Assembly: GCF_000023965.1 (NCBI RefSeq)
Contig: NC_013202.1
Location: 870,001-902,000 of the forward strand
From: Halomicrobium mukohataei DSM 12286
GTDB taxonomy: Archaea; Halobacteriota; Halobacteria; Halobacteriales; Haloarculaceae
Direction: 5' to 3'
DNA length: 32,000 nt
A program made the position numbers and the translations under genes. Below the pieces are notes generated by a model that saw only the letters and a list, made by a program, of their open reading frames with translations, had not been told where the DNA came from and searched no databases. This document shows positions 3,844 through 31,388 of the stretch, piece after piece (within the stretch, counting starts at the first letter, position 1; each line of letters opens with the position of its first letter).

Positions 3844-3897
3844 CACTTTCTTTGACTATCGAAACAATCTTTGTACTACAGGAGGAGTCCTCCACCA

Positions 3898-10505: not shown

Positions 10506-10509
<4 letters not shown>
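9958..10509 (-). CDS. moaB: Molybdenum cofactor biosynthesis protein MoaB/MogA-type (MoCF_biosynth domain) with a His-rich N-terminal extension
   Basis: Internal ATG at 10509 of track ORF 9958..10755, overlapping the moaC stop (ATGA). DVIVTTGGTGLTPDDVT and GIVGETAVYAFPGSP are MoaB/MogA signatures. The N-terminus is MSDEHGHDHGDGEHGHHHHHG. Confidence 0.8.
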
Positions 10510-10976
<467 letters not shown>

Positions 10977-13527: not shown

Positions 13528-13534
13528 CGAGCGA

Positions 13535-13885
13535 TCAGACGGCGTCCGGTCCGCGTTCACCCGTCCGGACCTGGACTGCGTCCTCCACGTCGATCACGAA
13601 GATCTTCCCGTCGCCGGGCTCGCCGGTGTGTGCGCCTTCCTGGATCGCATCGACCACGTCGTCGGCCGGGATGTCGGCGACGACACACTCGATTTTGACT
13701 TTCTGGTGGAGATCGACGACGTACTCCTCGCCGCGCCACTGGCCTTTCTTGGCCGGCTGTGAACCGCGGCCGGAGACGTTCGTCACCGTCAGCGACGGCG
13801 CGCCCACTTCCGCCAGCGACTCCTTGACGTCGCCGAGCTTGTCCGGCCGCACCATCGCGACGACCATCTTGATCTCGTCAGTCAT
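13535..13885 (-). CDS. glnK: P-II nitrogen regulatory protein (GlnK)
   Basis: [37 protein letters not shown]...[10 protein letters not shown]...KIECVV...[11 protein letters not shown] is the P-II consensus. Its start overlaps the amt stop by 8 nt. Confidence 0.9.
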
Positions 13886-15650: not shown

Positions 15651-16925
15651 TCACGACCGGGATCGATCGGCCTCGCGGTCGAAGACCGACAGGATCGGCG
15701 TCGTCGCGGGGAGATGCGGGAGCAGGTACTCGTCGTCGGGCAGCTCGACGACGACCGTCTCGGTGCCGAGCAGCCGATCGAGGAGCGTCCGTTCGATCCG
15801 AACGGCCGTCTCGTCCCAGGGCTCGACGCGCCACAGCGAGACGCCGAACAGCCGGTCGTACGCGACGAGGGCGCGCTCGCCCTGCGCGGCGCGGTACTCG
15901 ACTGCGCCGTATCGCAACAGGTGATCGACAGAGACGAGTGTCAGCGGAATCGCGACGCCGAGCGCGACCAGGAGGCCGACGACGAGCCAGGCGCTGCCGA
16001 AGGCAAACAGCGCCGCGACGGCCAGCAGAAAGACACCGAGAAACGCGGCCCCGGGGTGCTGTGGGAGACGCAACGCGCCACCGAAGACGCGACCTGCGAG
16101 TGTGGGTCGAACCCGGTCGGCCGCGGCGGCGGACACGCCCGCGACCGACTGGGGCTCGGGCGGGGCCTGGGACCACCCGTACGCCTCGTCGTACGAGACG
16201 AAGTAGACGGCGAGCCGGTCGCTGTACACGCCAAGGAAGTCAGAGGCGTACTTCAGACCGATAATCGCGATCAGCAGCGCCGGACCGACCGCGGTGGGAT
16301 CGAGCGACCCCAGCGTCGTGTCGGGTCCGGCGCTGACGATGCCGACCATCGAGAGCGTGAACATACCGACGAAGAACACGGTGAAGATGCGAAAGACGAC
16401 ACCGCTGATGGCGGTCTGAGAGTTGTGGTTCCGGTACTCGCCGCGCAGGAAGTAGGTCCGTATCGTCGACACACCGGTGGTACAGAGGATCGCGAGCGTG
16501 GCCAGGGTCACGCTCGCGACCGTGTCGTCGTCGAGTGCCGACGTGCCCAGCGGGCCGACGAGGAAGGCACCGGCGAACAGCCAGACCCCCGCGACGACCA
16601 GTACCGCGATCGGGAGGGTCAGCAGCGTCACGACGTAGATCTGGAGGTCGGTCCACGGAACGTCGAGCGTCGGCCGGCGCTGTGCAACCGCCCCGATCAA
16701 CAGCCCGTCGGTGTCGACCTCGGGCGGTCGGGCGGCAAACAGCGCACGCACGAACGCCCACACCGCGTCGACGCCCAGTTCGAACCAGTAGAGCACGAGG
16801 AGGGCGGCGACGTTCCACTCGAAGGCGACGACGCCGACGACCGGCACGGCGTTGGTGACGGTGATCTCTGCGAGTTCGAGCCGACGACTGTCCGTCGACG
16901 GAACGATCCGGCGGAGGGCGACCAT
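15651..16925 (-). CDS. Polytopic membrane protein with a C-terminal bacterial-PH (bPH_2/YdbT-like) domain; the N-terminal part resembles DUF6498
   Basis: ATG start; at least 8 hydrophobic segments. The C-terminus ...RYGAVEYRAAQGERALVAYDRLFGVSLWRVEPWDETAVRIERTLLDRLLGTETVVVE looks like a membrane-flanked PH domain. Family names are from memory. Confidence 0.6.
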   Translation of the reverse strand: MVALRRIVPSTDSRRLELAEITVTNAVPVVGVVAFEWNVAALLVLYWFELGVDAVWAFVRALFAARPPEVDTDGLLIGAVAQRRPTLDVPWTDLQIYVVTLLTLPIAVLVVAGVWLFAGAFLVGPLGTSALDDDTVASVTLATLAILCTTGVSTIRTYFLRGEYRNHNSQTAISGVVFRIFTVFFVGMFTLSMVGIVSAGPDTTLGSLDPTAVGPALLIAIIGLKYASDFLGVYSDRLAVYFVSYDEAYGWSQAPPEPQSVAGVSAAAADRVRPTLAGRVFGGALRLPQHPGAAFLGVFLLAVAALFAFGSAWLVVGLLVALGVAIPLTLVSVDHLLRYGAVEYRAAQGERALVAYDRLFGVSLWRVEPWDETAVRIERTLLDRLLGTETVVVELPDDEYLLPHLPATTPILSVFDREADRSRS

Positions 16926-17046: not shown

Positions 17047-18027
17047 TCAGAGGCGCTGGGCGATGTCCTCGGCGAAGTACGTCAGAATGAGGTCCGCGCC
17101 GGCCCGCTTGATCGAGAGCAGCGACTCACGGGCGACCGCGTCGAGGTCGAGCCACCCCTTCTCGCTGGCGGCGTGCAACATCGCGTACTCGCCGCTGACG
17201 TTGTAGGCGGCGACGGGGTGGTCGTACTCGCGGCGAATCGCGCTCACGATATCGAGGTAGGGCAGCGCGGGCTTGACCATCAGCACGTCCGCGCCCTGCT
17301 CTACGTCGAGGGCGACCTCCCGCATGGCCTCGCGGCCGTTCGCGGGGTCCATCTGGTAGTGTCGCCGGTCGCCGAAGGCGGGTGCGCCGTCGGCGGCGTC
17401 GCGGAAGGGACCGTAGAAGGCCGACTCGTACTTGGCCGCGTAGCTCATGATCGGCACGTCCGAGAAGCCGTCGTCGTCGAGCGCCTCGCGGATCGCCCCG
17501 ACCATCCCGTCGGTCATGCTGGAGGGTGCGACCATGTCCGCCCCCGCGCGAGCGTGCGAGACCGCCGTCTTCGAGAGCAGTTCCAGGGTCGGGTCGTTGC
17601 GGACCGTCAGCGTCGGGTCGTCGGCCGCACCGTCCTCGACGATTCCGCAGTGGCCGTGACTGGTGTACTCACAGAGGCACACGTCCGTGATGACGTAGGC
17701 GTCGGTCTCGTCGGTGATCGACCGGACCGCGCGCTGGACGACGCCGTCGGTCGCCCAGGCTCGCGAGCCGCGTTCGTCCTTTGCCTCGGGGACGCCGAAG
17801 ACGATCACCGCCTCGACGCCGGTCGCCAGCACCTCCTCGACGCGGTCGACGGCCGCCTCGACCGGGACGCGTTCGTGACCCGGCATCGTCTCGATGGGCA
17901 CTCGCTCGTCGGTGGTGGCGTCGACGAAGATCGGCGCGATCAGGTCCGCTGGCGAGAGGGCCGTCTCGCTGACCAGCCCGCGGACGCCGTCGGTCCGGAG
18001 CCGGCGCGGTCGGCGTGTCGGTTGCAT
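17047..18027 (-). CDS. hemB: Porphobilinogen synthase (delta-aminolevulinate dehydratase)
   Basis: RPRRLR...LIAPIFV..., [46 protein letters not shown] and [11 protein letters not shown] are the HemB consensus. Confidence 0.9.
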
Positions 18028-18491: not shown

Positions 18492-19139
18492 ATGGCCTCT
18501 CTGGCGTTCCCCGCTCGCTCGCGGCTCCGGACGTGGGCCGAGGAGTACGGCCTGCTCGCGATCGCGCTCTCGTTCGTCGTGCTGGCGGGAGCCGGTGTGG
18601 CGCTGTTCGTCGTCGGCGACGAGCAGCTGGCCCGCGAGCTGATCCAGCGCTACGGGCTCGCGGCGCTGCTCGTGATCTTCGTCCTCGAAGGCGCGATGTT
18701 GCTGTATTTCGCCCCCAGCGAGGTGCTCGTCCCCGCCGCCATCGGCGCGCTGGCGACGACCGACGGCGGCTACGACTGGGGTGCGATCGTCGCCATCTTC
18801 GTGGTGGCCGTCGTCGGGGCGACGGCGGGCCAGACGACCCTGTTCGTGCTGGCCCAGCGGGGCGGCCGCGAGTGGCTCCTCCAGAAGCCGTGGTTCCGGG
18901 TCAGCGAGTCGAAGCTCGACCGCTTCGACGGCTGGTTCGATCGCTGGGGCCACGCCGCCGTCCCCGTCAGCAACGCGCTCCTGTTCACCCGCGGCATGCT
19001 GACGGTGCCGGCCGGCGTCGCCGAGATGCGCGTGCGGCGGTTCGCCGCGCTGTCGGCCGTCGGGACGCTGGTCTTCGAGACGTGGCTCGCGGTCTCGTTT
19101 TACTACCTCAACGAGGCCGGCCTCCTGTGGTTCCTGTGA
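18492..19139 (+). CDS. DedA/VTT (SNARE-associated) family membrane protein
   Basis: YGLAALLVIFVLEGAMLLYFAPSEVLVPAAIG...VVGATAGQTTLFVLAQRGGREWL...RWGHAAVPVSNALLFTRGMLTVPAGVAEM is a DedA-type pattern. Confidence 0.65.
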   Translation: MASLAFPARSRLRTWAEEYGLLAIALSFVVLAGAGVALFVVGDEQLARELIQRYGLAALLVIFVLEGAMLLYFAPSEVLVPAAIGALATTDGGYDWGAIVAIFVVAVVGATAGQTTLFVLAQRGGREWLLQKPWFRVSESKLDRFDGWFDRWGHAAVPVSNALLFTRGMLTVPAGVAEMRVRRFAALSAVGTLVFETWLAVSFYYLNEAGLLWFL

Positions 19140-19205: not shown

Positions 19206-19676
19206 ATGAGCAACACGGGCCTCGACGACGTGGACAGAGCGATCCTGTACGCGCTGCAGGAAGACGCTCGCGACATGTCCTCGGGCGACATCGCGGAACG
19301 AACCGGCACCTCTGACAGCACGGTCCGCAAGCGCATCCAGCGCCTCGAAGGCGACGAGATCATCAAAGGGTACAGCGCCGAGGTGGACTACCAGGAGTCG
19401 GGCTATCCGCTCCGAATGTTGCTTTTCTGTACCGCGTCGATCCCGGAGCGGGGCGAGATCGTCCCGGAGATCCTGTCGATCGACGGCGTCGTCTCCGTCC
19501 AGGAGCTGGTCACCGGCGAGGAGAACCTCCTCGTGACGGTCGTCGGGGAGTCCGACAGCGACATCACGCCGGTCGCACAGGAGCTGCTCGACATGGGCGT
19601 GACGGTCGCCGACGAGGTGCTGGTTCGAAGCCACGAGACGACGCCCTTCGGGGAGTTCGACCCCGAAGACGTCTAA
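19206..19676 (+). CDS. Lrp/AsnC family transcriptional regulator
   Basis: LDDVDRAILYALQEDARDMSSGDIAERTGTSDSTVRKRIQRLEGDEIIKGYSA (HTH) plus a C-terminal ligand-binding-like domain. Confidence 0.8.
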   Translation: MSNTGLDDVDRAILYALQEDARDMSSGDIAERTGTSDSTVRKRIQRLEGDEIIKGYSAEVDYQESGYPLRMLLFCTASIPERGEIVPEILSIDGVVSVQELVTGEENLLVTVVGESDSDITPVAQELLDMGVTVADEVLVRSHETTPFGEFDPEDV

Positions 19677-20689
19677 CAGATCACGCGCTCGACGTCCAGC
19701 GCGGTCGCGCGCCGGACGACGCTCTCGACGGGGTGGCGTGAGCCGGCCAGATTGTCCGAGTCGCCGTCGAGGACGGTCAGGGCCGCCCGCTTGCCGGGCG
19801 CGACGACGCCACAGTCGAGGCCCGCGATCTCGGCACCGGCCGTCGTCGCCATCCGCAGTACCTCGCGGGCGCTCACGTCGAACTGCCTGACCGTGTACGC
19901 CATCTCTCGGAACATCGACGGCGGGTTCAACATGACGTTGTCCGTGCCGAGCGCGACGGTCGTGTGATCGAGCAGGTCTCGAATCGGCGGCCGGCCGACG
20001 CCGAGGACGGTGTTGGCGCGCGGGCACACCGCCACCGGGACGGACTGCTCGGCGACGCGTTCGAGGTGCTCCCCTGCGGCGTGAACCATGTGGACGAGCA
20101 GGTCCGGCTCCAGATCGAGCGCGGGGTGGATGTCCGTCTGGTCCGGTTCTCCGGCGTGGATGGCGAAGGGGACGCCCCGGTCGGCCGCCGCGTCGCGCTG
20201 TGGCCCGAAGTCGTCGTCGTTGGCACCGCTGGCTCCGAAGCCGTCGGCCACGTCGAGGACCGACGCGTCTCCGCTCCCGAAGACGAACGGATCGATCGAC
20301 AGCGGCTCGGCGGCCTCCCGGAGCGTCCGCGCGCCCTCTCTCCCGAACTCCCGGAAGTCCAGCGTCGAGACGGTCCCGGTCCGCTGCATGAACCGAAGCG
20401 TCCGGCGCATCGCGGTCACGAGCTCGGCCCGGTCGGCGTCGGCCAGTCGACGGTGCTTCAGGCTGTCGGGCGGTGCGACCGCCGCGTCGAGCGAGAGCCC
20501 GACGGCGGCGTCTTTCGCGACCGCGTCACCGAGGTGGGTGTGTGCGTTGACGAACGCCGGCAGGATGATGTCCGTCGACGCCGTGTCGGTCTCCTCGACC
20601 GCCTCGATCCGGCCGTCTTCGACGACGACACGGCCCGTAACGGGTTCGAACGACTCACCGACGAGAACGGTTCCCTCTAACGCAGGCAT
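19673..20689 (-). CDS. Amidohydrolase-superfamily metal-dependent hydrolase (short, deaminase/chlorohydrolase-like); substrate unknown
   Basis: The N-terminal beta-sandwich is VVVEDGRIEAVEE. The HxH metal motif is PAFVNAHTHLGD, followed later by HAGE, VHMVH and GTDNVM blocks. Confidence 0.7.
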   Translation of the reverse strand: MPALEGTVLVGESFEPVTGRVVVEDGRIEAVEETDTASTDIILPAFVNAHTHLGDAVAKDAAVGLSLDAAVAPPDSLKHRRLADADRAELVTAMRRTLRFMQRTGTVSTLDFREFGREGARTLREAAEPLSIDPFVFGSGDASVLDVADGFGASGANDDDFGPQRDAAADRGVPFAIHAGEPDQTDIHPALDLEPDLLVHMVHAAGEHLERVAEQSVPVAVCPRANTVLGVGRPPIRDLLDHTTVALGTDNVMLNPPSMFREMAYTVRQFDVSAREVLRMATTAGAEIAGLDCGVVAPGKRAALTVLDGDSDNLAGSRHPVESVVRRATALDVERVIC

Positions 20690-20708
20690 ACCCGTGGTGG
20701 TGTACAGG

Positions 20709-20752
20709 GAACGATATGGTTTTCTATATGCGATATTCGAACGATCCGGTAG
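20709..20752. promoter_or_regulatory. Two copies of GAACGATnnGGT(AG), 30 bp apart, bracketing the TATA-like block of the amidohydrolase promoter
   Basis: GAACGATATGGT (20709-20720) and GAACGATCCGGTAG (20739-20752) flank 'tttctatatgcgatatt'. Confidence 0.4.
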
Positions 20753-20898
20753 CGTTATGGGCCAAGGTGGGCAAGCCGACAGCAGCGCGGCGGGGAACGC
20801 GAGAAGGGCCTCCGCGACGGTGACGACGTGTGCGAAACGCGTCGGTCCCGTGCTCGAAGCGCTCGAAGACCATCACGTTCTATAATCTACTTCTTCCA

Positions 20899-20930
20899 GA
20901 ACGATCTGGTAGTATAGATAGATTTAATAG
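20899..20930 (+). promoter_or_regulatory. Third GAACGATCTGGTAG copy (20899-20912) abutting a TATA-like block (tatagatagatttaatag), the putative dabB promoter
   Basis: AT-rich TATA-like sequence lies ~30 bp upstream of 20958 and ~95 bp upstream of the ATG at 21025. The motif is 13/14 identical to 20739-20752. Confidence 0.35.
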
Positions 20931-21024
20931 ACAGTCTGTTCGTACATCCGGGTGAAGATGACCGATCGCTGTGATCGCGTGTGCCACGCGGGGTCACGGT
21001 GATCGGACGGAGACCGACCAAACG

Positions 21025-22512
21025 ATGACCGGACAAACGCAGGCGACGACCGTAGGACAGCTACCGACGCCAGACGGCGAGGACTCGCGCGTCGCGGCGA
21101 CACTGACACGAGTCGTGTGGTTCCTCTGTGTCGTGAGTGTCGGCGTGTTGGCGCTTCGGCTCCGGGGCAGCGGACCATGGGGGATCGACGGTCTCGTCGC
21201 GGTCGACGGCCTGACCGCCGTGATGTGGGTGACCGTCACCTTCGTCAGTGGGATCGTCCACAGCTACTCGCGACGCTACATGGCCGGCACCCGGACGATC
21301 GATCGCTTCTTCGGACGCGTGTTCGCGTTCACGCTGATCGTGATGGTCCTGGTTGCCGCCGACGCCCTCGCGCTGTTCGTGGCCGCGTGGCTCGGGATGG
21401 GGCTGGTGATGGCCGACCTGATCGGCCACGTCGAGGGGTGGCCACAGGCACGGGCCGCCGCCGCGCTCTCGCGCCGGTACTTCCTGGCCAGCACCGGCGC
21501 GCTCGCGGTCGCGCTCGGAACGCTGTGGTGGCACACCGGCGCGACGACGGTCTCCGGCGTCGCGCCGGCGCTGGGCGAAGCCTCCGGGACGGTCGTGCTG
21601 TTTGCCGCCACCGCGCTCGTGCTGGCGGCGATGATCCAGTCCGCGCTCGTCCCGTTCCACACCTGGCTCGTCTCTTCGATGACGGCACCGACGCCCGCCT
21701 CCGCGCTGATGCACGCCGGTTTCGTCAACGCCGGTGGCGTCCTGCTGGTTCGCTTCGCGCCGGTGGTCACCGTCGACAGCGCGTTCATGCTGGCCGTCGC
21801 CGTCGTCGGTGCGACCAGCGCGCTGTCGGGAAAGCTCCTGAAGACCGTCCGCACGGACGTGAAGGGGAAGCTCGGCTGTTCGACGGTCGGCCAGATGGGG
21901 TTCATGATCATGCAGGCCGGCCTGGGCTTTTTCGGGGCGGCCGTCACGCACCTCGTCTTGCACGGATTCTACAAGGGCTACCAGTTCCTGAGCTCGGGGA
22001 GTCAGGTGGCCCACGAGAGCCCGCAGTCGCCGACGGCCACCGATTCGGCGGGACCAGTCGGCGCGGTCGTGATCGCCGCCACCGCGCTGGCCGGTGGCGT
22101 CCTGTTCGCCGTCCTCACCGGGAAAGGGACGAAGCTGGACAGCGGGCTGGTGCTCGCGCTGCTGGTCGTGCTGACGGTGCTTCACGCCGCGCGCGATCTC
22201 GTCACGCGGTCGGCGCTGCCCGCGTCGGTTCGGTACGGAGCCGTCCCACTGGTGGCGTTGCCGGCGATCGGGATCTACGGCGTCGTCTACGGGACGATCG
22301 AGGGACTGCTGGGCGGACTGCCGGGAGTCGGAGCGACCGCGGAGCTGACGGTGGCCCACGGCCTCATCGCCGCCGCGTTCGTCGCCACGTACCTCGCGAT
22401 CGAGCGCGGTGCCTACAAGCACAGCCAGCGCCTCTACGTGGTGCTTTTGAACGCCACACAGCCACCGTCCGAGACGCAACTGACCGCTACGGAGGAGTAC
22501 AATGAGTACTGA
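21025..22512 (+). CDS. dabB: DabB-like subunit: NuoL/ND5/MrpA-family (PF00361-type) cation-translocating membrane protein
   Basis: LAAMIQSALVPFHTWLVSSMTAPTPASALMHAGFVNAGGVLLVRF and KGKLGCSTVGQMGFMIMQAGLG match the NuoL core ([31 protein letters not shown]...). No other nuo/mrp genes are adjacent. The start is ambiguous: GTG 20971 or ATG 21025. Confidence 0.75.
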   Translation: MTGQTQATTVGQLPTPDGEDSRVAATLTRVVWFLCVVSVGVLALRLRGSGPWGIDGLVAVDGLTAVMWVTVTFVSGIVHSYSRRYMAGTRTIDRFFGRVFAFTLIVMVLVAADALALFVAAWLGMGLVMADLIGHVEGWPQARAAAALSRRYFLASTGALAVALGTLWWHTGATTVSGVAPALGEASGTVVLFAATALVLAAMIQSALVPFHTWLVSSMTAPTPASALMHAGFVNAGGVLLVRFAPVVTVDSAFMLAVAVVGATSALSGKLLKTVRTDVKGKLGCSTVGQMGFMIMQAGLGFFGAAVTHLVLHGFYKGYQFLSSGSQVAHESPQSPTATDSAGPVGAVVIAATALAGGVLFAVLTGKGTKLDSGLVLALLVVLTVLHAARDLVTRSALPASVRYGAVPLVALPAIGIYGVVYGTIEGLLGGLPGVGATAELTVAHGLIAAAFVATYLAIERGAYKHSQRLYVVLLNATQPPSETQLTATEEYNEY

Positions 22513-24919
22513 CGACGCGATCCACGAGAGTATCGAGACGGCAGCACAGACGGTCGGCTCCCGCTGGCCGTTGCACTCGTTCGTGACGGCCAACCCCCTC
22601 TCGGGCTTCGAGGACCAGCCCTTCCACGAGGCCGTCGCGGCCACAGCAGACACGCTGGGGAGCGACGGTTACCCAGACGCCGACGTGTTCCGCCGTGCCT
22701 GGGAAGACGGTCGGATCGACCCCGACGTCCTCCGGACCACGCTGCGCGAACACGGGTACGAGAGCGATCCCGAGACGACGCTCGATCGCATGGCGAACAC
22801 GGAGCGGGCCGAGGCGACCGAGACGGCGACCGCCAGCGAGCGGGTGGACGCGGTGCTGACCAAGTGGCTGTCGGCGTTCCTCGATCAGGGACAGGCCAAG
22901 TGGCCGATGCCGGAACGCGAGGACGGCTTCTACGACGCGTTCCGCGCCGTCGCTCGCCACGACGGCGAGATCCCCGACGCCGAAGCGATCGCCGAGCTTC
23001 CGGACTGCCCGCTCGACGCCATCCGAGAGCAGCTCGTGAACGATCCCGTCGGAGAGTGGCCGGACATCTTCGAGTTCCACCTGGCCGCGTTGCCGGGCTG
23101 GACCGGCCTGCTCAAGCAGCGGGCCGACGACGGGGACGCCTGGCAGTCCGCGTACCCGATCACGCTGGCCGGCTATCTGGCGGTCAGGCTGACGCTGGTC
23201 GACCTGTTCGACGCCCCGCGCACGCCCGCGGAGGCAGACGGGGACGACGCCACGGTGGACGGGGCCGTCCCGCTCCCCGAGGTCTGGCTGACCGCCTGGG
23301 AGGCGACCTACCGCTCGGAGCTCGTCGCGGAGCTTACCGACGCAAGCGAGTCGGTCGCTGAGACCGACGAGGGGGACAGACCGGACGCACAGCTCGTCTT
23401 CTGTATCGACACCCGCTCGGAGATCATCCGCCGCCACGTCGAGGCCGCTGGCGACTACGAGACCCACGGCTACGCCGGGTTCTTCGGCGTCCCGATGCGC
23501 TACGAGGGACACGACTCGGAGGTGGCCGTCGACGCCTGCCCGCCGATCCTCGACCCACAGCACCGCATCGCGGATCGTCCCACGGACCGCGAGGTGTCAC
23601 GCCACGCCGAACACGACCGCTGGGCGGCCATCCGCGAGGCGGGCGAGAGCGTGATCGGGCGGCTCCGCTCCAACGCGGCGACGGCGTTCAGCTACGTCGA
23701 GACCACCGGCGCGGGGTACGGGGCCGCACTCGCGGCCCGGACGCTGGTCCCCGGACGCGTCCACGACCTGCTCGACGCCGTCGACGATCGCACGCCCGAC
23801 GACCACGCGGTCTGGGAGCCGGCCGTCGATCACGATCCGGACCACGCCCACGAACTCCCGGCGGGGCTGACGGTCGAGGAGAAAGTCGAGTACGCCGCGA
23901 CGGCGTTCGAACTCATGGGCTGGGAGCAGTTCGCCCGCCTGGTCGTGTTCACCGGCCACGCGAGCCAGACGGCGAACAATCCCTTCGACGCCAGCCTCGA
24001 CTGCGGTGCCTGTGCCGGCAACCCCGGCGGCCCCAGCGCCCGCGTCCTCGCCGCTGTCTGCAACGACGACGCCGTCAGAGAACGCCTGCGTGACCGCGGC
24101 ATCGACGTGCCCGAAGACACCTACTTCCTGGCCGGCGAGCACAACACGACCACCGACGAGATCGAGCTGTACGCGGACGCCGTCCCCGAGACACACGCCG
24201 ACGATCTCGACGCGCTCCGCGCCGATCTCGAAACTGCGCGTGCCGGTGCGGCCGCCGAGCGCGCCGACGACATGGGCGCGGACGGCGACGCGGGCCGTGA
24301 TACGCACCGCCGCGCGGCCGACTGGGCAGAGACGCGCCCGGAGTGGGGGCTGGCGGGCAACGCCGGCTTCGTCGTCGGCCCGCGCGAACTCACCGACGGG
24401 CTCGATCTGGACGCCCGCGCGTTCCTCCACTCCTACGACTGGACGACCGACGACGAGGGCGACGCGCTCGAAGCCATTCTGACCGGGCCGATGGTCGTCA
24501 CCCAGTGGATCAACGCCCAGTACTACTTCTCGACGGTCGACAACGCCGTCTTCGGCAGCGGCTCGAAGGTGACTCACAACCCCGTCGGCAACGTCGGCGT
24601 CTACCAGGGCAACGGCGGCGACCTGCTGACCGGCCTCCCGCTGCAATCGCTGATGGCTGCCGACGACGAACCGTACCACCAGCCGCTTCGCCTCTCGACG
24701 GTCGTCCACGCGCCCGTCGAGCGCGTCACCGACGTGCTCGCCGACAACCCCGAGGTCGCCGAACTGCTGGACAACGACTGGCTCCACCTCACCGTCGTCG
24801 ACCCCGAGCAGGAGCACTGCGCGTTCCACTACGCCGAGGACCTGGAGTGGACGCCGATCTCGGAGGAGACGACACCAGCACAGGCGACCGCTGGGACGCC
24901 CTCGCCGGCCGACGACTGA
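22502..24919 (+). CDS. dabA: DabA-like subunit (DUF2309/UPF0753, beta-carbonic-anhydrase-like)
   Basis: The N-terminus is ...VGSRWPLHSFVTANPL. Zn-ligand motifs are LVFCIDTRSE (C301, D303) and FTGHASQ...SLDCGACAG (H486, C501). The C-terminus is VVTQWINAQYYFSTVDN...GSKVTHNPVG. 805 aa. The ATG overlaps the dabB stop by 11 nt. Confidence 0.8.
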   Translation: MSTDDAIHESIETAAQTVGSRWPLHSFVTANPLSGFEDQPFHEAVAATADTLGSDGYPDADVFRRAWEDGRIDPDVLRTTLREHGYESDPETTLDRMANTERAEATETATASERVDAVLTKWLSAFLDQGQAKWPMPEREDGFYDAFRAVARHDGEIPDAEAIAELPDCPLDAIREQLVNDPVGEWPDIFEFHLAALPGWTGLLKQRADDGDAWQSAYPITLAGYLAVRLTLVDLFDAPRTPAEADGDDATVDGAVPLPEVWLTAWEATYRSELVAELTDASESVAETDEGDRPDAQLVFCIDTRSEIIRRHVEAAGDYETHGYAGFFGVPMRYEGHDSEVAVDACPPILDPQHRIADRPTDREVSRHAEHDRWAAIREAGESVIGRLRSNAATAFSYVETTGAGYGAALAARTLVPGRVHDLLDAVDDRTPDDHAVWEPAVDHDPDHAHELPAGLTVEEKVEYAATAFELMGWEQFARLVVFTGHASQTANNPFDASLDCGACAGNPGGPSARVLAAVCNDDAVRERLRDRGIDVPEDTYFLAGEHNTTTDEIELYADAVPETHADDLDALRADLETARAGAAAERADDMGADGDAGRDTHRRAADWAETRPEWGLAGNAGFVVGPRELTDGLDLDARAFLHSYDWTTDDEGDALEAILTGPMVVTQWINAQYYFSTVDNAVFGSGSKVTHNPVGNVGVYQGNGGDLLTGLPLQSLMAADDEPYHQPLRLSTVVHAPVERVTDVLADNPEVAELLDNDWLHLTVVDPEQEHCAFHYAEDLEWTPISEETTPAQATAGTPSPADD

Positions 24920-24928
24920 TCCGGTCGA

Positions 24929-25660
24929 CTACTCGGGGCTGTCGACGCGTTGTGCGACCCACTCGGCCGCCGCGGCCACCTCCTGGGCGTCGGTCCCCGA
25001 CACCTTCACCCGACCGTCCGCGTCCCCGTGTGCGGGGTAGCTGCCGACCGCCACGTCGAACCGCTCGCGAACGCCCGCGAGCACGTCCTTGAGCGCGCCC
25101 TCGGGCGTGACCGTCGGCACGGACTCGGCGACCGCGTCGCCACCGAACTCGTCGGCGACGCTGTCGAACATCGCCTGCAACTCCTCCGGGAAGCCGGGGA
25201 AGACGTAGACGTTCTCGACCACGCAGCCGGGGTTGAAGCTGGCCGCCGTCTGGAGCGGGCGGGCGTCCGCCGGCAGCGCCGCGGTCTCCTCGAAGTCCAG
25301 GTCGAAGTCGTGTTCCTCGTAGCGCTCGGGGTTCTCCTCGCGGTACTCGCGGGCCTTCTCCTCGACGCGCTCGCGGACGGCGGGCTGGACGGTCATCTCG
25401 CGGTCGAAGGCGTCGGCGACCGCTTCGAGGGTCACGTCGTCGGGCGTGTCGCCCAGGCCGCCCGTGACGATCACGGCGTCGAAGGCGTCGGCCCACTCCC
25501 GGACGTGGCGGGCGATCAGCGCCCGGTCGTCGGGGATCGTGAGCATCCGCGCGATCGTGACCCCGCGCTCGGTCAGCCGGCGGGCCAGCCACCCGGCGTT
25601 CGTGTTCTCCGTGTCCCCCGAGAGAATCTCGTCGCCGACGGTGATGAGTGCGACCTGCAT
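24929..25660 (-). CDS. CinA-N-terminal-like molybdopterin-binding (MoCF_biosynth) domain protein
   Basis: MQVALITVGDEILSGDTENTNAGWLARRLTERGV...VIVTGGLGDTPDDVT...VYVFPGFPEELQAMF. Confidence 0.7.
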   Translation of the reverse strand: MQVALITVGDEILSGDTENTNAGWLARRLTERGVTIARMLTIPDDRALIARHVREWADAFDAVIVTGGLGDTPDDVTLEAVADAFDREMTVQPAVRERVEEKAREYREENPERYEEHDFDLDFEETAALPADARPLQTAASFNPGCVVENVYVFPGFPEELQAMFDSVADEFGGDAVAESVPTVTPEGALKDVLAGVRERFDVAVGSYPAHGDADGRVKVSGTDAQEVAAAAEWVAQRVDSPE

Positions 25661-25703: not shown

Positions 25704-27791
25704 TTAGGCCGCGCTCTCGGCGGCGATCGCTTCGGCCAGCAGTTCGGTGACGCCGACGATCTCGATGTCGTCCTCGTAGTCGCCGGTCTTGCGGCCGTCC
25801 TCGTACATCGTCATGCACATCGGGCAGGCGACGACGAAGCGATCCACGGTCGCGCCCGCTTCGGTGTCCTCCAGGGCCTCGCGCAGGCGCTCTTCGCTGG
25901 GTTTTGCCTCCTCTTCGAGGTCCATCCAGAGGCCGCCCCCGCCCCCGCCACAGCAGAAGGAGTCGTCGCGGTTGCGGGGCATCTCCACGCGGTCGACGCC
26001 CGTCGCGTCGATCAGCGCCCGCGGGGCCTCGAACTCGCCGTTGTACCGCCCGAGGTGGCAGGGGTCGTGGTAGGTGACGGTGTCTGTGAGCGTCGCCGGC
26101 ACGGCCAGTCGCCCGGTCTCGACGAGGTCGGCGACGACCTGCGTGTAGTGGGCCACGTCGTCTCCCTCCCACTCGCAGGCCTCGAACTCGGGGTACTCGT
26201 GTTTGAACGTGTTGAACGAGTGGGGGTCCGTACAGACGATCCGGCCGAACTCGCAGTCCTGGATAGCGGCCGCGTTGTCCTCGACGAGCATCTCGTAGAG
26301 CCCCTCCTCGCCGACGCGGCGCACGTCGTTGCCGTCGGTCTGCTCGTCCTCGTAGAGGATGCCGTAGGAGGCGTCGCTGGCTTCGAACACGCGGGCCAGC
26401 GCCTTGGCGATCTCCTGGTTGCGGTCGTCGTAGCTGGGGTAGTCGCCGACGTACCAGCAGTAGTCGACGGGCTCCTCGCGGGCGTCGGGCACGTCGAAAT
26501 CCAGTTCCTCGGTCCAGTCGGGCCGCTTGCGTTCGGGTTCGCCGAAGGTGTTGCCCTGCTGGAAGACGTTCATCATGGCGTCCTGGACGTGTTCGTCCAT
26601 CTGGCCCGACTCCGTCAGCCGGCGGTTCATCTCGGTGAAGTGAGTGAGGTGTTCGATCTCGACCGGACAGGCGTCCATGCAGGCCATACAGGCCATGCAG
26701 GACTCCATCGTCGCGCTGTCGACGACTGATGTACCCCCATCCGCGACGATGTCGACGGCCTCGCCCCCGGCGTCCCGTTCTTCGCGGTACTGCTTCAGGT
26801 CGAGGATCACGTCGCGCGGATCGAGCGGGCGGCCCGACTCCTTGGCCGGACACGCCGACGAGCAGCGGCCACACTTCGTGCAGGCGTCCTGATCGAGCAG
26901 CTGTTTCCAGGAGAAGTCGTCGATCTCGCTTGGGCCGATCTCCTCCGGGCTGGCGTCTTCGGGGACGCCGGGGAGGCGCTTGCCGGCCTTCTCGTCGCGA
27001 GTGACGACGTTGGCAAAGGACGACAGCATGTGGAAGGGCTTGGCGTAGGGCACCCAGGCGACGAAGGCCAGCGCCAGCAGCGAGTGGCTCCACCAGATCA
27101 CGGGGTAGGCGGCGGCCGCCATCTCGGGGGAAACACCTGCAGCGGCGAGCCACTCCTTGCCCGCCCAGCCGACGAAACTCCACGTCTCGAAGCTCACGTT
27201 TCGGACCGCGCTCGTCCCGAGGATGCGGACGGCCTCGGTGACGTACCCGCCGACGCCGAGCAGGAAGAGCGCGCCGAGGAAGTAGTCGTCCTCGCGGGCG
27301 GTGTGGCGGCCGTGGAGCCGGTCCGTCCGGCGGACGTACCGCCGCCACATCGCGACGCCGACCCCGACGACGAACAACAGCCCCATCGCGTCCATCACGA
27401 AGGAATAGGAGAGGTAGAACTCGCCGACGAAGAAGGACTCGCCGGTCAGGGGCCGGTAGAGGTCCATGTCGATGCCCAGAATCGTCGTCCCGATCAGCAG
27501 CGTCAGGAACCCCCAGAAGACGAAGGTGTGCATCACGCCCGCGACGAGGTCGCGGTCGAACTGCTTGGCGTTGGTCAGCGCGAGGCGCGCGCCCGAGAGG
27601 ATCCGCGAGGGAAGCGCGTCCAGGCGCGGGAACGGCTCGTCACTCCCGCGAGTGTAGCGTGTGAGACGCTCGTACACGCCGAAGGCGAACACGAGCAACG
27701 CCAGCGCCGCGAGGTAGTAGAACACCGCCTTGCCGACCGGTCCGATCTGCCAGAAGGTCGGTCTGGTGGTGGTCTGGAGTGGAACTGTCAT
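25704..27791 (-). CDS. Membrane-anchored (Fe-S)-binding oxidoreductase: NarI/DsrM-like heme-b membrane domain fused to an HdrD/DsrK-like module (2x[4Fe-4S] + two CCG domains)
   Basis: The N-terminal ~230 aa have 5-6 TM helices containing His residues. The ferredoxin motifs are CTKCGRCSSACP and CMACMACMDACP. The CCG-type motifs are YHDPCHLGR, FCCGGGGG and VVACPMCMTM. Confidence 0.7.
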   Translation of the reverse strand: MTVPLQTTTRPTFWQIGPVGKAVFYYLAALALLVFAFGVYERLTRYTRGSDEPFPRLDALPSRILSGARLALTNAKQFDRDLVAGVMHTFVFWGFLTLLIGTTILGIDMDLYRPLTGESFFVGEFYLSYSFVMDAMGLLFVVGVGVAMWRRYVRRTDRLHGRHTAREDDYFLGALFLLGVGGYVTEAVRILGTSAVRNVSFETWSFVGWAGKEWLAAAGVSPEMAAAAYPVIWWSHSLLALAFVAWVPYAKPFHMLSSFANVVTRDEKAGKRLPGVPEDASPEEIGPSEIDDFSWKQLLDQDACTKCGRCSSACPAKESGRPLDPRDVILDLKQYREERDAGGEAVDIVADGGTSVVDSATMESCMACMACMDACPVEIEHLTHFTEMNRRLTESGQMDEHVQDAMMNVFQQGNTFGEPERKRPDWTEELDFDVPDAREEPVDYCWYVGDYPSYDDRNQEIAKALARVFEASDASYGILYEDEQTDGNDVRRVGEEGLYEMLVEDNAAAIQDCEFGRIVCTDPHSFNTFKHEYPEFEACEWEGDDVAHYTQVVADLVETGRLAVPATLTDTVTYHDPCHLGRYNGEFEAPRALIDATGVDRVEMPRNRDDSFCCGGGGGGLWMDLEEEAKPSEERLREALEDTEAGATVDRFVVACPMCMTMYEDGRKTGDYEDDIEIVGVTELLAEAIAAESAA

Positions 27792-28931: not shown

Positions 28932-29963
28932 TCAGTCCCCAGCCGCCGACTGCCCGCCCCCCGGCTGCCCCGAGGACAGCGGCGTCCGTTCCACGACGGT
29001 CCCGTCGTACGTCGGGTGCTGCTCGACGATCTCACCCTTCTCGACGTCGCCGTCCTCGACCATCTCTTCGAGGAGCCACCAGGCGAGTTCGACGTGCTCC
29101 GATTTCACGGCGTAGAACTCCTCGGGCACGCCCAGTTCCTGCAGGCGGTCCTCGCCGACCCAGGTCTTGCCGTAGACGAGCGTGCCGTCGTCGGTGACCT
29201 CGTCGAACTCGCGGCCGATGTTGCGGGCCATGCGCTTCATCCGGGAGCGGTGCTGGGCGGCGTCCTTGAAGACGGAAGTACAGAAGTAGACCTTCTCGTG
29301 GTCGCCCATCGTCTCCAGGATCTCGTGGCTCCCCTCGACGGCGCTCATGTGGCCTTCCTTGCGCTCGAAGCCCTCCGCTTGCATCCGGCGGAAGTTCCCG
29401 TCGGACATCTCGAACTCGTTGATGTTACAGAAGTCGGCGGCCCCTTCGTCGAGAAAGTCGAGGAACTCCTCTTCGGCGCGGATGCCGGGAATCTCGAAGG
29501 CCGGTGTGAGACCTTCCTCGCGGGCGATGTAGAGGATCTCCTCCCACTCGGTGCCGTGGAGGTCGCCCCACTGTTCGAGGGGCGGGTGGAAACGGATCTC
29601 GTCGAGGCCCGCCTCGCTGAGGCGGCGCATGTTCTCGCGCCCGCCCGTGATCCCGGTGTAGAGGTGCGTGTGGTGGTCCTCGCCGAATTCGTCTTTCAGC
29701 AGTTCGAGGTAGTGACACGTTCGGTCCAGCGCCTCCTGGGGCTCGCCGCCCGTGATGGAGGTCCCCAGCGCGTCCATCAGTTTCGCCTCGGCGATCACGT
29801 CCTCGTCGGACTCGACGGGGCGCTCGTTCGCGTACACCTGATCGACGTTCTTGCGGTTCTCGCCCAGCGGACAGTAGAAGCAATCGCGCTGGTCACAGTA
29901 GCCGTAGACGAACATGACCATCTTCCCGCCCTCGGCACACTGTTCACAGCCCTTGGAGATCAT
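28932..29963 (-). CDS. Radical SAM-like protein (COG2108-like, PFL-activase related) with CX4CX2C cluster motif
   Basis: MISKGCEQCAEGGKMVMFVYGYCDQRDCFYCPLGENRK..., then GTSITGGEP (SAM-binding GGE-type motif). 343 aa. Confidence 0.65.
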   Translation of the reverse strand: MISKGCEQCAEGGKMVMFVYGYCDQRDCFYCPLGENRKNVDQVYANERPVESDEDVIAEAKLMDALGTSITGGEPQEALDRTCHYLELLKDEFGEDHHTHLYTGITGGRENMRRLSEAGLDEIRFHPPLEQWGDLHGTEWEEILYIAREEGLTPAFEIPGIRAEEEFLDFLDEGAADFCNINEFEMSDGNFRRMQAEGFERKEGHMSAVEGSHEILETMGDHEKVYFCTSVFKDAAQHRSRMKRMARNIGREFDEVTDDGTLVYGKTWVGEDRLQELGVPEEFYAVKSEHVELAWWLLEEMVEDGDVEKGEIVEQHPTYDGTVVERTPLSSGQPGGGQSAAGD

Positions 29964-30068: not shown

Positions 30069-31388
30069 ATGGCCACCCGCTCGCGGCGTGGGCTCGCGAT
30101 CGTCTTCGCCGTCGTCTTTCTGGACCTGCTGGGGTTCGGGATCATCATCCCGATCCTGCCCTACTACACGCGCACGTTCCCCGGCGGTACGGAGTTCGTC
30201 ATCGGACTGCTGGCGGCCTCGTACTCGCTCATGCAGTTCGTCTTCGCTCCACTGCTGGGCTCGCTCTCGGACCGGATCGGCCGTCGCCCCGTCATCGTGG
30301 TGTCGCTCGGCGGCTCGGTGATCGCCTGGACCGTCTTCGGGCTGGCCGACGCGCTGTGGCTGTTGTTCCTCTCACGCATGCTCGCAGGTGCGATGGGTGG
30401 GAACCTCTCGACGGCACAGGCCTACGTCGCCGACGTGACCCCGCGAGAGGAGCGAGCGAAGTCACTGGGCCTGCTCGGGGCCGCGTTCGGACTGGGATTT
30501 ATCTTCGGTCCCGGAATCGGTGCAGTGTTGAGTTTCGACGGCGTCGTCGCCGCCGTCGACGGCCTCGTCCCGGTCGTGGCCATCACCCGCTTCTCGCTGC
30601 CGAGTTTCGCCGCCGCCGCGGCGAGTCTCTGCGGCGTCGTCGTCACGCTACTGTTCCTGCCGGAGTCGCTGCCGGCCCCCGCCCGCGGCGACGAGACCAC
30701 GCGGCGGCCGTCCCAGATCGCGCAGTTGGTGACGGCCGTCCGGACGACCGGGTTGCGAGAGCTGCTCGCCGCGTTCTTCCTCGTCTCCTTCGCGTTCTCG
30801 GGCGTCCAGATCATGTTCATTCCGTTCGTCGCCGACGTGTACGGCTACACGGCGAGTCAGAGCGCGCTCTTGCTCACCTATATCGGCGTGCTGTCGGTCG
30901 TCGTCCAGGGCGTGTTGATCGGGCGACTGACGGCGCGATACGCCACAGTGTCGCTGACGGTCGGTGGGACCGCGGTGCTCGCAGTGGGCGTCGGGCTCTT
31001 GCCGTTCACGAACTGGCTGGGAGCGAGCGTCTTCGATCTGACCGGCGTCGCACCGTTTCTCACCGGCGAGTTGCTGGCACTGCTGGCGGTGCTGACGCTG
31101 CTGCCGCTCGGCAACGGCGTGTTGTCGGTGACGCTGACGACGATCGTCTCCCAGCGAGCCTCCGCCGCGACCCAGGGGAGCGCGTTCGGCCTGACACAGG
31201 GTGCCGGCAGCCTCGCGCGGACGGTCGGGCCGATCGTGATGGGCGGGCTCTACACCGTGGTGGGTTACTGGTCGCCGTTCGTCGTCGGCGCGGTGTTGCT
31301 CGTCCCCGTCGGAGTGTTGGTCCTCCGTCTCGGGAACGCTCCGGAGCCGCCCGAGCCGCGGCCTGTCGATCCGGGCCACGTTCGATGA
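30069..31388 (+). CDS. MFS transporter (drug:H+ antiporter / TCR-Tet-like)
   Basis: FLDLLGFGIIIPILPYY, MQFVFAPLLGSLSDRIGRRPVI (motif A) and LSRMLAGAMGGNLSTAQAYVADVT; 12 TM segments. Confidence 0.8.
   Translation: MATRSRRGLAIVFAVVFLDLLGFGIIIPILPYYTRTFPGGTEFVIGLLAASYSLMQFVFAPLLGSLSDRIGRRPVIVVSLGGSVIAWTVFGLADALWLLFLSRMLAGAMGGNLSTAQAYVADVTPREERAKSLGLLGAAFGLGFIFGPGIGAVLSFDGVVAAVDGLVPVVAITRFSLPSFAAAAASLCGVVVTLLFLPESLPAPARGDETTRRPSQIAQLVTAVRTTGLRELLAAFFLVSFAFSGVQIMFIPFVADVYGYTASQSALLLTYIGVLSVVVQGVLIGRLTARYATVSLTVGGTAVLAVGVGLLPFTNWLGASVFDLTGVAPFLTGELLALLAVLTLLPLGNGVLSVTLTTIVSQRASAATQGSAFGLTQGAGSLARTVGPIVMGGLYTVVGYWSPFVVGAVLLVPVGVLVLRLGNAPEPPEPRPVDPGHVR

Follow-up and report, generated by a model that had tools for sequence, protein, structure and literature searches.

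Sequence evidence for a DabBA-type inorganic carbon system with a conserved Lrp-linked upstream region in Halomicrobium

Organization of the locus

The window, by which we mean the whole 32 kb stretch of Halomicrobium DNA analysed here, contains a pair of overlapping genes, dabB and dabA, together with a divergently transcribed amidohydrolase gene, a gene for an Lrp/AsnC-family regulator, and several non-coding elements. The features are as follows.

19206-19676, + strand: gene for an Lrp/AsnC-family (FFRP) regulator, 156 aa (PF13404, HTH_AsnC-type, E 1.2e-13)
19673-20689, - strand: amidohydrolase gene (chlorohydrolase/deaminase-like), 338 aa, divergent from dabB (PF01979, E 6.4e-33)
20709-20750, + strand: two copies of GAACGATNYGGT (20709-20720 and 20739-20750), at distances of 20 and 50 nt from the start codon of the amidohydrolase gene
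20872-20944, + strand: putative dabB promoter/operator block, with ATCACGTTCTATAAT, a GAACGATCTGGT copy, a TATA-like box and CAGTCTGTTCGTA in that order
20959-21009, + strand: long hairpin in the predicted dabB 5' leader, in which outer stem 20959-20967 pairs with 21001-21009
21025-22512, + strand: dabB, NuoL-like membrane subunit, 495 aa (PF00361 and PF00662)
22502-24919, + strand: dabA, cytoplasmic beta-carbonic anhydrase (CA)-like zinc subunit, 805 aa (PF10070; DabA2, 9rd0_A)

The original prediction had described plus-strand open reading frames at 20971-22512 and 22502-24919 that overlap by 11 nt. Both are present, their translations contain every peptide that it quoted, and the overlap (ATGAGTACTGA, 22502-22512) is as claimed. 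A Shine-Dalgarno-like GGAGGAG run lies 5 nt 5' of the dabA ATG, and dabA is probably translationally coupled to dabB. The gene order and the 11-nt overlap recur at about 40 loci, which represent many haloarchaeal genera. The likely genes of the window include no nuo, mrp, RuBisCO or carboxysome genes, as had been noted before. The Halomicrobium DabA and DabB are both acidic, halophilic proteins.

The maximal open frame of dabB starts at GTG 20971, the first possible start. Homologues at 40 loci align from ATG 21025 (MTGQTQ...), and in the locus alignment 20950-21024 has the conservation pattern of a non-coding leader rather than of protein. The gene thus most likely spans 21025-22512, and on this comparison ATG 21025 rather than GTG 20971 is most likely its true start. 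The earlier description of a NuoL/MrpA-type protein of about 500 aa holds as to family (PF00361, E 1.1e-32; PF00662, E 1.5e-10), but its start at 20971 is probably to be moved.

DabA is a full-length family member with an intact zinc site

Residues 11-761 of DabA match positions 1-747 of the 747-position PF10070 (DabA) profile in Pfam with an E value of 4.8e-267, in agreement with its earlier identification as a DUF2309 protein. Against the solved Halothiobacillus neapolitanus DabA2 (9rd0_A) the match extends over residues 9-771 (E 1e-107), with 35% identity across 736 aligned columns. A threshold of E <= 1e-10 gives 2610 relatives, of which the best 120 are 68-94% identical to DabA and are haloarchaeal wherever the source gives a name; several relatives carry the UniRef label "Probable inorganic carbon transporter subunit DabA".

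The four proposed zinc-site residues C301, D303, H486 and C501 fall in the columns of C351, D353, H524 and C539 of DabA2, as was predicted, and the codon positions given for them (23402-23404, 23408-23410, 23957-23959 and 24002-24004, respectively) are correct. The roles of DabA2 residues are taken from cryo-EM and mutagenesis of DAB2 (bioRxiv 10.64898/2026.03.13.711513, also PMC13144422). Residues C301, D303, R305, S306, E400, H486, C501, H547, D552, R612, W615 and L617 are each conserved in no fewer than 159 of 160 relatives. The Asp-Arg dyad, the finger glutamate, the tunnel gates and L617 are also found in the matching DabA2 columns, with E400 corresponding to E444, the membrane "finger" glutamate, and L617 to L658. 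At each of the 21 mechanistic DabA2 positions, DabA has either the same residue or a conservative replacement, and most of these positions are invariant across the 160 relatives.

DabB is a NuoL-like subunit of a distinct subtype

The best PDB match of DabB is DabB2 (9rd0_B; E 1.6e-36, residues 47-431), and whereas this alignment reaches residue 431, those to NuoL/ND5 end near residue 330. The glutamate of NuoL TM5 is replaced by L123, and this Glu is missing in all 136 of the nearest DabB-like cluster representatives (at least 400 aa), as it is in DabB2 (I151). The best solved relative and the lost Glu bear out the earlier proposal of a DabB-type membrane subunit. Residues H230, H309, H313 and K317 are invariant among the same 136 representatives. 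A shared-core profile of the nearest DabB relatives scores DabB2 at 240 bits, slightly above NuoL at 223 and 207 bits; since it separates the two only slightly, the membrane-subunit assignment rests largely on its architecture, its gene context and the signature residues. An AlphaFold model made in the course of the analysis was of low quality (pLDDT 60).

The TM7 lysine of NuoL corresponds to Q205, which is Gln in 42 of 42 loci, and to Gln in 110 of the 136 nearest representatives. By sequence, Gln in place of this lysine marks a widespread subtype of DabB. The K235/D185 ion pair of DabB2 is accordingly absent, with Q205 and G158 there instead; its disruption in DAB2 lowers growth yield by 30-60% (bioRxiv 10.64898/2026.03.13.711513). 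The missing pair is a point against a DAB/DAC reading.

The upstream region carries conserved, putatively regulatory elements

The PDB relatives of the Lrp/AsnC regulator are FFRP/Lrp proteins. Orthologues with 68-99% aa identity lie upstream of dabB in 38 haloarchaeal loci, that of the window among them, and lrp is syntenic with dabBA in all haloarchaeal loci that extend far enough upstream; a 64% homologue adjoins dabA in a Planctomycetia MAG. This protein is a candidate for a dedicated regulator of dabBA. In 21 of 42 loci the amidohydrolase gene separates lrp from dabB. Its product has only distant PDB relatives (TM0936 and atrazine chlorohydrolase), and scores 241.6 bits against NF005552 (PRK07213), under the cut-off of 294.

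Exact matches to GAACGATNYGGT occur three times in the 32 kb window, all within the single amidohydrolase-dabB intergenic region. The third copy, GAACGATCTGGT, is at 20899-20910, and a TATA-like TTTAATA follows at 20923-20929. In an upstream alignment the columns of the blocks within 20872-20944 are conserved at 80% or more among haloarchaeal genera. The 21 intergenic regions together contain 36 occurrences of the GAAC-N5-GGT motif (0.97 expected), at fixed positions: the site 50 nt from the amidohydrolase start is kept in 13 of the 21 loci that have this gene, and 17 of 21 have one at 101-140 nt 5' of the dabB ATG. A positioned motif is common to both promoters which, with the lrp synteny, upholds the link to the amidohydrolase and Lrp that had been proposed. 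We infer from its sequence that TTTAATA is the dabB TATA box, and we place the transcription start by reference to it; in two published Haloferax volcanii transcriptome studies we found nothing on the leader or the transcription start.

The hairpin at 20959-21009 has a predicted minimum free energy of -38.2 kcal/mol (z -4.09), and none of 200 shuffles is equally stable. In a sequence-only alignment 77.7% of its outer-stem cells pair, compared with 19-43% when the partners are slid; compensatory changes occur in seven of nine outer-stem pairs, and the covariation score of 0.346 (0.194 in shuffles) is reached in none of 500 shuffles. No Rfam family matches it. This conserved structure in the leader may act as an additional means of control. 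It is possible, albeit doubtful, that the inverted repeat acts in DNA rather than RNA, as an Lrp operator palindrome or a remnant of a small palindromic mobile element. The arm bases CGACCG...CGGTCG are its most conserved part, the transcription start rests on the TATA-like box, and the element is missing in one locus (L031) and short in another (L016). Against this, the interior differs wholly in sequence between genera while retaining self-complementarity, and the repeat keeps a constant place about 15 nt 5' of the ATG and 3' of the conserved TATA-like box. Moreover, the arms co-vary (GACCGAT/ATCGGTC, GACCGGT/ACCGGTC, GACCAGT/ACTGGTC, GGCGGC/GCCGC), which fits base pairing rather than protein recognition of fixed half-sites.

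Proposed function and alternatives

Judged from sequence, both subunits are intact and retain the residues needed in DAB2, save for the K235/D185 pair of DabB. We consider it very probable that the Halomicrobium dabB-dabA operon encodes a DAB/DAC-type "vectorial carbonic anhydrase", one in which a membrane ion gradient most likely drives the capture of CO2 as bicarbonate. The buried zinc site of DabA (C301, H486, C501, with a water held by D303-R305) would receive CO2 that has entered by diffusion or stems from respiration, while cations, most likely H+, would move down the gradient through H230, H309, H313 and K317 of DabB and the finger E400 of DabA. This flow would gate hydration and bicarbonate release, making the reaction one-way, and HCO3- would build up in the cytoplasm. 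In an aerobic heterotroph in brine the system would probably serve to supply or recapture the bicarbonate that carbamoyl-phosphate synthesis and bicarbonate-dependent carboxylases consume. The neighbouring Lrp/AsnC protein probably controls dabBA through the GAAC-N5-GGT sites on either side of the TATA box. In Hfx. volcanii, HVO_2411 was reported to be more than 30-fold up-regulated in stationary cells infected with a virus, and the operon is thus strongly regulated.

DAB/DAC systems in heterotrophic Halobacteria, with candidate roles including bicarbonate for carboxylases and pH regulation, are already in print (PMC5700660, 2017; bioRxiv 10.1101/476713; PMC8305020, 2021; PMC10880623, 2024), and the original prediction overstated its novelty in this respect. 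Hfx. volcanii HVO_2410/2411 are annotated as dabAB with a predicted function, and orthologues are present in 108 of 166 haloarchaeal genomes (PMC8305020). The statement in the original prediction that no experimental study of a haloarchaeal member is known stands, as we found no such study of any archaeal DabAB in the literature. The conserved Lrp regulator, the GAAC-N5-GGT promoter motif and the leader hairpin appear to be undescribed, although this is a modest addition; a literature search found nothing on a dabBA regulator, promoter motif or leader.

Coupling to Na+ rather than H+, as in an MpsAB-style Na+-dependent bicarbonate accumulator driven by the very large sodium gradient at about 4 M NaCl, seems unlikely to us. 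MpsAB has been argued to run on a sodium gradient (summarised in bioRxiv 10.64898/2026.03.13.711513), and the TM7 lysine and acidic partner of the H+-coupled DabB2 are Gln and Gly/Ala in haloarchaeal DabB; the presence of this Gln in 110 of 136 representatives defines a distinct subtype. However, the family has no known sequence signature of Na+ selectivity, so that the Gln is no more than suggestive. DAB2 does not rescue a Na+-transporter-deficient strain and works without sodium (same preprint), and the protonatable relay of DabB H230, H309, H313 and K317 with DabA E400 is invariant.

Operation in reverse, in which DabA would carry out bicarbonate dehydration or some other exergonic reaction in the cytoplasm to expel H+ or Na+ for pH or ion homeostasis or energy conservation instead of carbon supply, is very improbable. 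The COG1009 and COG3002 pair was originally proposed to export ions and convert energy (PMC5700660), and pH regulation by CAs has been raised for heterotrophs; but inorganic carbon is accumulated by DAB2, MpsAB and their relatives, which also complement E. coli lacking CA, and the features that block reverse dehydration in DAB2 (buried site, gated tunnels, L658) are kept in DabA as R612, W615 and L617. That DabB is a stray complex I or Mrp subunit, as automatic annotation often has it, with a DUF2309 protein unrelated in role, is hardly credible: its best NCBIfam models are named "NADH-quinone oxidoreductase subunit L" and "NADH dehydrogenase subunit 5" and its core is nearly as similar to NuoL/ND5 as to DabB2, but all NCBIfam matches are far under cut-off (best 211 versus 380 bits), the 495-aa protein has no NuoL-type C-terminal extension and neither the TM5 Glu nor the TM7 Lys of NuoL/ND5, no other nuo or mrp gene is in the window, the overlap with dabA recurs in about 40 loci, and Pfeiffer and Dyall-Smith (PMC8305020) explicitly warn of this misannotation. 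This reading is effectively refuted.

Comparison with known systems

The closest characterized relative is DAB2 of H. neapolitanus (DabA2/DabB2, Hneap_0211/0212; PDB 9rd0, 9rd8, 9rd9), likewise formed by two subunits from adjacent genes, a full-length PF10070 protein and a short PF00361 subunit. The two systems share the Cys2His zinc site, the Asp-Arg dyad, the finger-motif Glu, a Leu in place of the beta-CA Gln/His, the tunnel-gate Arg/Trp, and loss of the NuoL TM5 Glu with retention of the His/His/Lys axis. They differ in that identity is only 35% for DabA and about 27% for DabB, that the Halomicrobium DabB is about 55 residues shorter, and that its host is an aerobic heterotrophic archaeon without a carboxysome context. 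An Lrp-type regulator adjoins dabBA in Halomicrobium, whereas bacterial clades have been described with LysR or PII neighbours (PMC5700660).

Canonical beta-class CAs have the same Cys-His-Cys zinc ligation and Asp-Arg dyad, but members of the DabA family combine two fused pseudo-symmetric beta-CA-like domains with a 280-residue N-terminal domain, and their active site is buried and lacks a transition-state Gln/His; DAB2, once purified, shows no spontaneous CA activity (bioRxiv 10.64898/2026.03.13.711513). The cyanobacterial NDH-1(3/4) CupA/CupB systems carry out an analogous energised one-way CO2 hydration on the cytoplasmic side of a membrane module that resembles an antiporter, although with an unrelated catalytic subunit in a multi-subunit complex driven by electron transfer, and the window has no such partner genes (contrast drawn from the same preprint).

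The HVO_2410/HVO_2411 proteins of Hfx. volcanii belong to the same orthologous group as the Halomicrobium DabA and DabB. Identity between the proteins of the window and of Haloferax profundi is 63% for DabA and 65% for DabB, and the lrp-dabB-dabA order is the same; the Haloferax locus lacks an amidohydrolase gene between lrp and dabB, whereas Halomicrobium and about half of the loci have one. MpsAB of Staphylococcus aureus and NdhF-YbcC (MpsB) of Bacillus subtilis, compared here by description, are DAB-family inorganic carbon accumulators of heterotrophs that cells without carbonic anhydrases need in order to grow in ambient air. They are bacterial and reportedly Na+-linked, and the B. subtilis genes share an operon with the beta-CA gene canC, but their physiological logic is that proposed here for haloarchaeal DabBA.

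Organization of the dab operon

Two open reading frames on the forward strand, 20971–22512 and 22502–24919, have GC3 values of 0.88 and 0.90 in a genome of ∼68% G+C, which marks them as real genes, and their translations contain all of the peptides quoted in the original prediction of a DabB/DabA-type inorganic carbon (Ci) pump. The genes, dabB for a NuoL-like membrane subunit and dabA for a β-carbonic anhydrase-like (β-CA-like) zinc subunit, are adjacent and co-oriented and overlap by 11 nt as predicted (ATGAGTACTGA, 22502–22512); the overlap is kept in ∼40 homologous loci. A Shine-Dalgarno-like run, GGAGGAG, is located at 22491–22497, inside the 3′ end of dabB and 5 nt upstream of the dabA ATG, and this run and the 11-nt overlap would both fit translational coupling of the pair. 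The membrane protein of ∼500 aa had been placed from 20971 onwards; the reading frame is real, but its start is different. In ∼40 loci the alignment of orthologues begins at the ATG at 21025, and the DNA 5′ of this ATG is conserved as non-coding sequence, so that dabB most likely occupies 21025–22512 and encodes 495 aa; GTG 20971 is just the earliest codon at which the frame could open.

Likely genes of the window (coordinates, strand, product)
3871–5154, +, MFS transporter
9958–10755, −, molybdopterin-cofactor gene
10506–10976, −, molybdopterin-cofactor gene
11478–12302, +, molybdopterin-cofactor gene
13072–13560, −, Lrp/AsnC regulator (second)
13535–13885, −, P-II
13878–15203, −, ammonium transporter
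15651–16925, −, DUF6498 protein
17047–18027, −, porphobilinogen synthase
18492–19139, +, DedA/VTT protein
19206–19676, +, Lrp/AsnC regulator (dab-linked lrp)
19673–20689, −, amidohydrolase
21025–22512, +, dabB
22502–24919, +, dabA
24929–25660, −, CinA-like protein, convergent with dabA, 9 nt apart
25704–27791, −, CCG/4Fe-4S oxidoreductase
28932–29963, −, radical-SAM protein
30069–31388, +, MFS transporter

No nuo, mrp, RuBisCO or carboxysome genes were found among the likely genes of the 32 kb window, in agreement with the original reading of the neighborhood. DabA is 97% identical to a protein of Halomicrobium katesii DSM 19301, where 11 neighboring genes are syntenic (96–99% identity), and 94% identical to one of Halomicrobium sp. 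LC1Hm. We also note a contiguous same-strand cluster at 13072–15203 (−), ∼4 kb upstream of the dab-linked lrp, made up of a second Lrp/AsnC gene (ligand-binding domain recognizable), P-II and an ammonium transporter.

DabA retains the residues of the DAB2 active site

DabA matches the PF10070 (DUF2309) profile over its full length (positions 1–747 of 747) with 888.7 bits, far above the curated cut-off of 25, and an E-value of 4.8e-267. It also aligns over residues 9–771 with the solved DabA2 subunit of the Halothiobacillus neapolitanus DAB2 complex (PDB 9rd0, 9rd8, 9rd9; E 1e-107, 35% identity). An AlphaFold2 model built from a 37-sequence alignment of homologues 68–94% identical was poor (mean pLDDT 60, pTM 0.49), and a Foldseek search of that model against the PDB gave no match at E≤0.001. 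By homology to 9rd0, DabA would comprise two β-CA-like domains and an N-terminal helical domain.

In DabA2 the zinc ligands are C351, H524 and C539, accompanied by a D353-R355 dyad, a water network of S356, H585 and D590, and tunnel residues F375, A376, F378, L629, R653, W656, H684, V696, I700, A703 and P704; L658 stands in place of the β-CA Gln/His, and the essential E444, on a membrane-inserted finger, completes the proton path (bioRxiv 10.64898/2026.03.13.711513, PMC13144422). When DabA2 was aligned with the window DabA and 159 relatives, the four residues originally proposed for the zinc site, C301 and D303 (codons within 23402–23410), H486 (23957–23959) and C501 (24002–24004), fell in the corresponding DabA2 columns, with their codons as predicted. 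C301, H486, C501, D303 and R305, the zinc site and dyad, are each conserved in at least 159 of the 160 sequences. The conservation extends beyond the four ligands, in that the equivalents of the mechanistic residues are nearly all invariant across the clade. The water-network equivalents are S306, H547 and D552, and those of the tunnel are Y324, A325, F327, M591, R612, W615, H643, A655, I659, G662 and P663. L617 (equivalent to L658) is invariant, as are R612 and W615, which correspond to the gates Arg653 and Trp656. E400, the counterpart of Glu444, is found in all 160 sequences and lies within SYVETTG, the predicted finger motif.

DabB belongs to a glutamine subtype

DabB is short (495 aa) and carries PF00361 and PF00662. 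Among solved structures DabB2 is the closest relative (E 1.6e-36), and the alignment with it extends to residue 431, whereas those with NuoL/ND5 end near 330. The PDB search scores separate DabB2 from NuoL by only a small margin (129.9 versus 120.8 bits), with MrpA far weaker at 66.8 bits, and a profile of the relatives over the shared core gives a similarly modest margin (240 bits for DabB2, 223 and 207 for NuoL). Because the margin over NuoL is slight, we base the assignment on the architecture of the protein, its signature residues and the fact that its gene overlaps dabA in other loci as well. The WEGVG motif of NuoL/ND5 is WLGMG in DabB, such that the TM5 Glu is replaced by Leu123, a position that is likewise hydrophobic in DabB2 (I151). 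H230, H309, H313 and K317, which form the His/His/Lys relay, do not vary among 42 loci or among the 136 nearest DabB-like representatives of 50% clusters (minimum length 400 aa, mostly 420–530 aa). In a published tree (PMC5700660), the NuoL homologues associated with YbcC, among them those of haloarchaea, form a clade of their own with strong support. Identity as a true NuoL or MrpA subunit is rejected, as every NCBIfam model for NuoL or MrpA falls well short of its cut-off, L123 and Q205 replace the TM5 Glu and TM7 Lys, and the window holds no partner genes.

DabB differs from DabB2 in one of its ion pairs. The K235/D185 pair (TM7 Lys/TM6 Asp) of DabB2 corresponds to Q205 (21637–21639) and G158 (21496–21498); the Gln is invariant in 42 of 42 loci and position 158 is Gly or Ala. 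We considered whether the Lys-to-Gln change is a haloarchaeal speciality and rejected this, since Gln occupies the TM7 position in 110 of the 136 nearest DabB-like representatives (Arg in 14, Lys in 9). As Gln is the majority state, the K235/D185 pair marks a subtype rather than the family. Alanine substitutions in these ion pairs of DAB2 cut growth yield by 30–60% and do not abolish function (bioRxiv 10.64898/2026.03.13.711513, PMC13144422). Coupling of the DabBA complex to Na+ instead of H+ is a live alternative in view of the Gln subtype and the brine habitat, although DAB2 itself is Na+-independent (bioRxiv 10.64898/2026.03.13.711513, PMC13144422).

A conserved lrp gene and a shared promoter motif

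In each of the 38 haloarchaeal loci with enough upstream sequence, the window included, dabB is preceded by an orthologue of lrp (19206–19676; 68–99% amino acid identity); where none is present, a contig end truncates the locus. The orthologue is often more conserved than DabA and DabB themselves. The closest non-archaeal DabA/DabB found, at 45–54% identity, are from hypersaline metagenomes, in Bacteroidetes bacterium SW_4_67_19 (locus L040) and a Planctomycetia MAG (locus L043), an occurrence that would fit exchange of the operon between members of brine communities. In the Planctomycetia MAG a 64% Lrp homologue adjoins dabA (L043, 8176–8631, −), which hints that lrp and the pump may be transferred together.

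In 21 loci the amidohydrolase gene separates lrp from dabB. GAACGATNYGGT has three exact copies in the 32 kb (20709–20720, 20739–20750 and 20899–20910), and all of them fall in the 335-bp region between the divergent amidohydrolase and dabB genes of the window. In the intergenic regions of the 21 amidohydrolase-bearing loci we counted 36 occurrences of GAAC-N5-G[GT]T, compared to an expectation of 0.97. The motif is fixed in position at both ends: it lies ∼50 nt from the start codon of the amidohydrolase in 13 of 21 loci, and 101–140 nt (usually 121–130) from the dabB ATG in 17 of 21. Around the third copy, the dabB promoters of different genera share the pattern ATAATGTTCTATAAT-N(∼14)-GAACgatcTGGTAaTATAGAtAGATTTAATA-N(∼6)-CTGTTCGTA. 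A motif so positioned at both promoters supports co-regulation of the dabB and amidohydrolase units and, with the syntenic lrp, bears out the association with these genes that had been suspected. This arrangement suggests that GAAC-N5-GGT may be a common operator of the two divergent promoters, and the adjacent Lrp could plausibly be the regulator of both units.

A covarying hairpin in the predicted dabB leader

The predicted dabB leader, ∼70 nt long from an inferred transcription start near 20952, lies between a TATA-like box and the dabB ATG and folds as a long hairpin at 20959–21009 (+) with an MFE of −38.2 kcal/mol (z −4.09). Across 31 loci the leader folds have a mean z of −2.2, with z below −2 in 15. 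The position and pairing of the hairpin are kept across haloarchaeal genera while its interior sequence differs; it is short in locus L016 and absent from L031. Support comes from single-sequence folds, a scan for complementary arms and a count of paired positions in the outer stem. In a sequence-only alignment 77.7% of outer-stem cells pair, compared to 19–43% with slid partners, and seven of the nine pairs show compensatory changes. The outer-stem covariation score is 0.346 versus 0.194 in shuffles, none of 500 shuffles reaching 0.346. RNAalifold found no consensus structure on a MAFFT alignment of the leaders because the hairpin interior cannot be aligned, and an Rfam scan of 20600–21200 returned one hit, at chance level (IMPDH RNA, 13.9 bits, gathering score 95.4). 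An upstream open reading frame in the leader (ATG 20958, 14 codons) was rejected, as it is not conserved in other genera.

Proposed mechanism and role

Every part that a vectorial carbonic anhydrase would need is conserved in the DabA and DabB alignments, and this interpretation of DabBA is supported, with activity, coupling ion and physiological role inferred. In the proposed mechanism, CO2 would arrive at the buried Zn-hydroxide site of DabA, and a flow of cations by way of DabB and the finger Glu of DabA would gate hydration and product release. This gating would make the reaction one-way, and bicarbonate would build up in the cytoplasm. Brine dissolves CO2 poorly, and the membrane is impermeable to bicarbonate. 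In an aerobic heterotroph the pump would likely supply or recapture bicarbonate for carboxylases and carbamoyl-phosphate synthesis. Such a bicarbonate-supply role has been demonstrated genetically for the Bacillus subtilis relative, and Desmarais et al. put it forward for heterotrophs (bioRxiv 10.1101/476713).

The only expression datum found for the system concerns HVO_2411, the Haloferax volcanii dabB orthologue, which is up more than 30-fold in stationary cells chronically infected with HFPV-1 and was filed under "energy production" (PMC9436352). This label probably reflects the NuoL-like annotation. The up-regulation shows the operon to be strongly inducible; no transcription-start or expression entries for HVO_2410–2412 were found in two Hfx. 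volcanii transcriptome papers. The regulatory features suggest that the pump would be switched on under defined conditions rather than being constitutive. A more ambitious reading, which we consider rather unlikely, takes lrp, the GAAC-N5-GGT sites on either side of the TATA box in both promoters (dabB and amidohydrolase), and the hairpin with its covarying stem together as a dedicated, undescribed haloarchaeal circuit for Ci acquisition; the hairpin would be a new cis-regulatory RNA sensing a signal (Ci, pH or salt) or binding a protein, and the Gln-type DabB would define a subfamily with different ion coupling, possibly to Na+. The syntenic lrp, shared promoter motif and leader hairpin appear to be modest new leads, undescribed so far. 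They offer concrete regulatory handles in Haloferax volcanii, and the residue-level conservation provides precise mutagenesis targets for work in that host.

Relationship to known systems

The literature search found no experiments, such as Ci accumulation or CA-free rescue, on any archaeal DabBA member, which agrees with the original prediction for haloarchaea. The system itself is already known and annotated there. Desmarais et al. reported that DabA occurs in archaea and that Euryarchaeota with DabA have form III RuBisCO or none (bioRxiv 10.1101/476713). Pfeiffer and Dyall-Smith (2021) annotated HVO_2410/2411 as dabAB, with orthologues in 108 of 166 haloarchaeal genomes, and warned that dabB is easily mislabelled nuo or mrp (PMC8305020). 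A 2024 minireview lists DACs in the class Halobacteria, which are heterotrophs (PMC10880623), and several haloarchaeal orthologues in UniRef are named "Probable inorganic carbon transporter subunit DabA". An energy-consuming, CO2-hydrating pump is kept in about two-thirds of haloarchaeal genomes, in aerobic heterotrophs living in brine. Given these prior annotations and reports, the operon described here is an ordinary member of the family, and it is chiefly of use as a clean, carefully checked case that adds one further intact orthologue.
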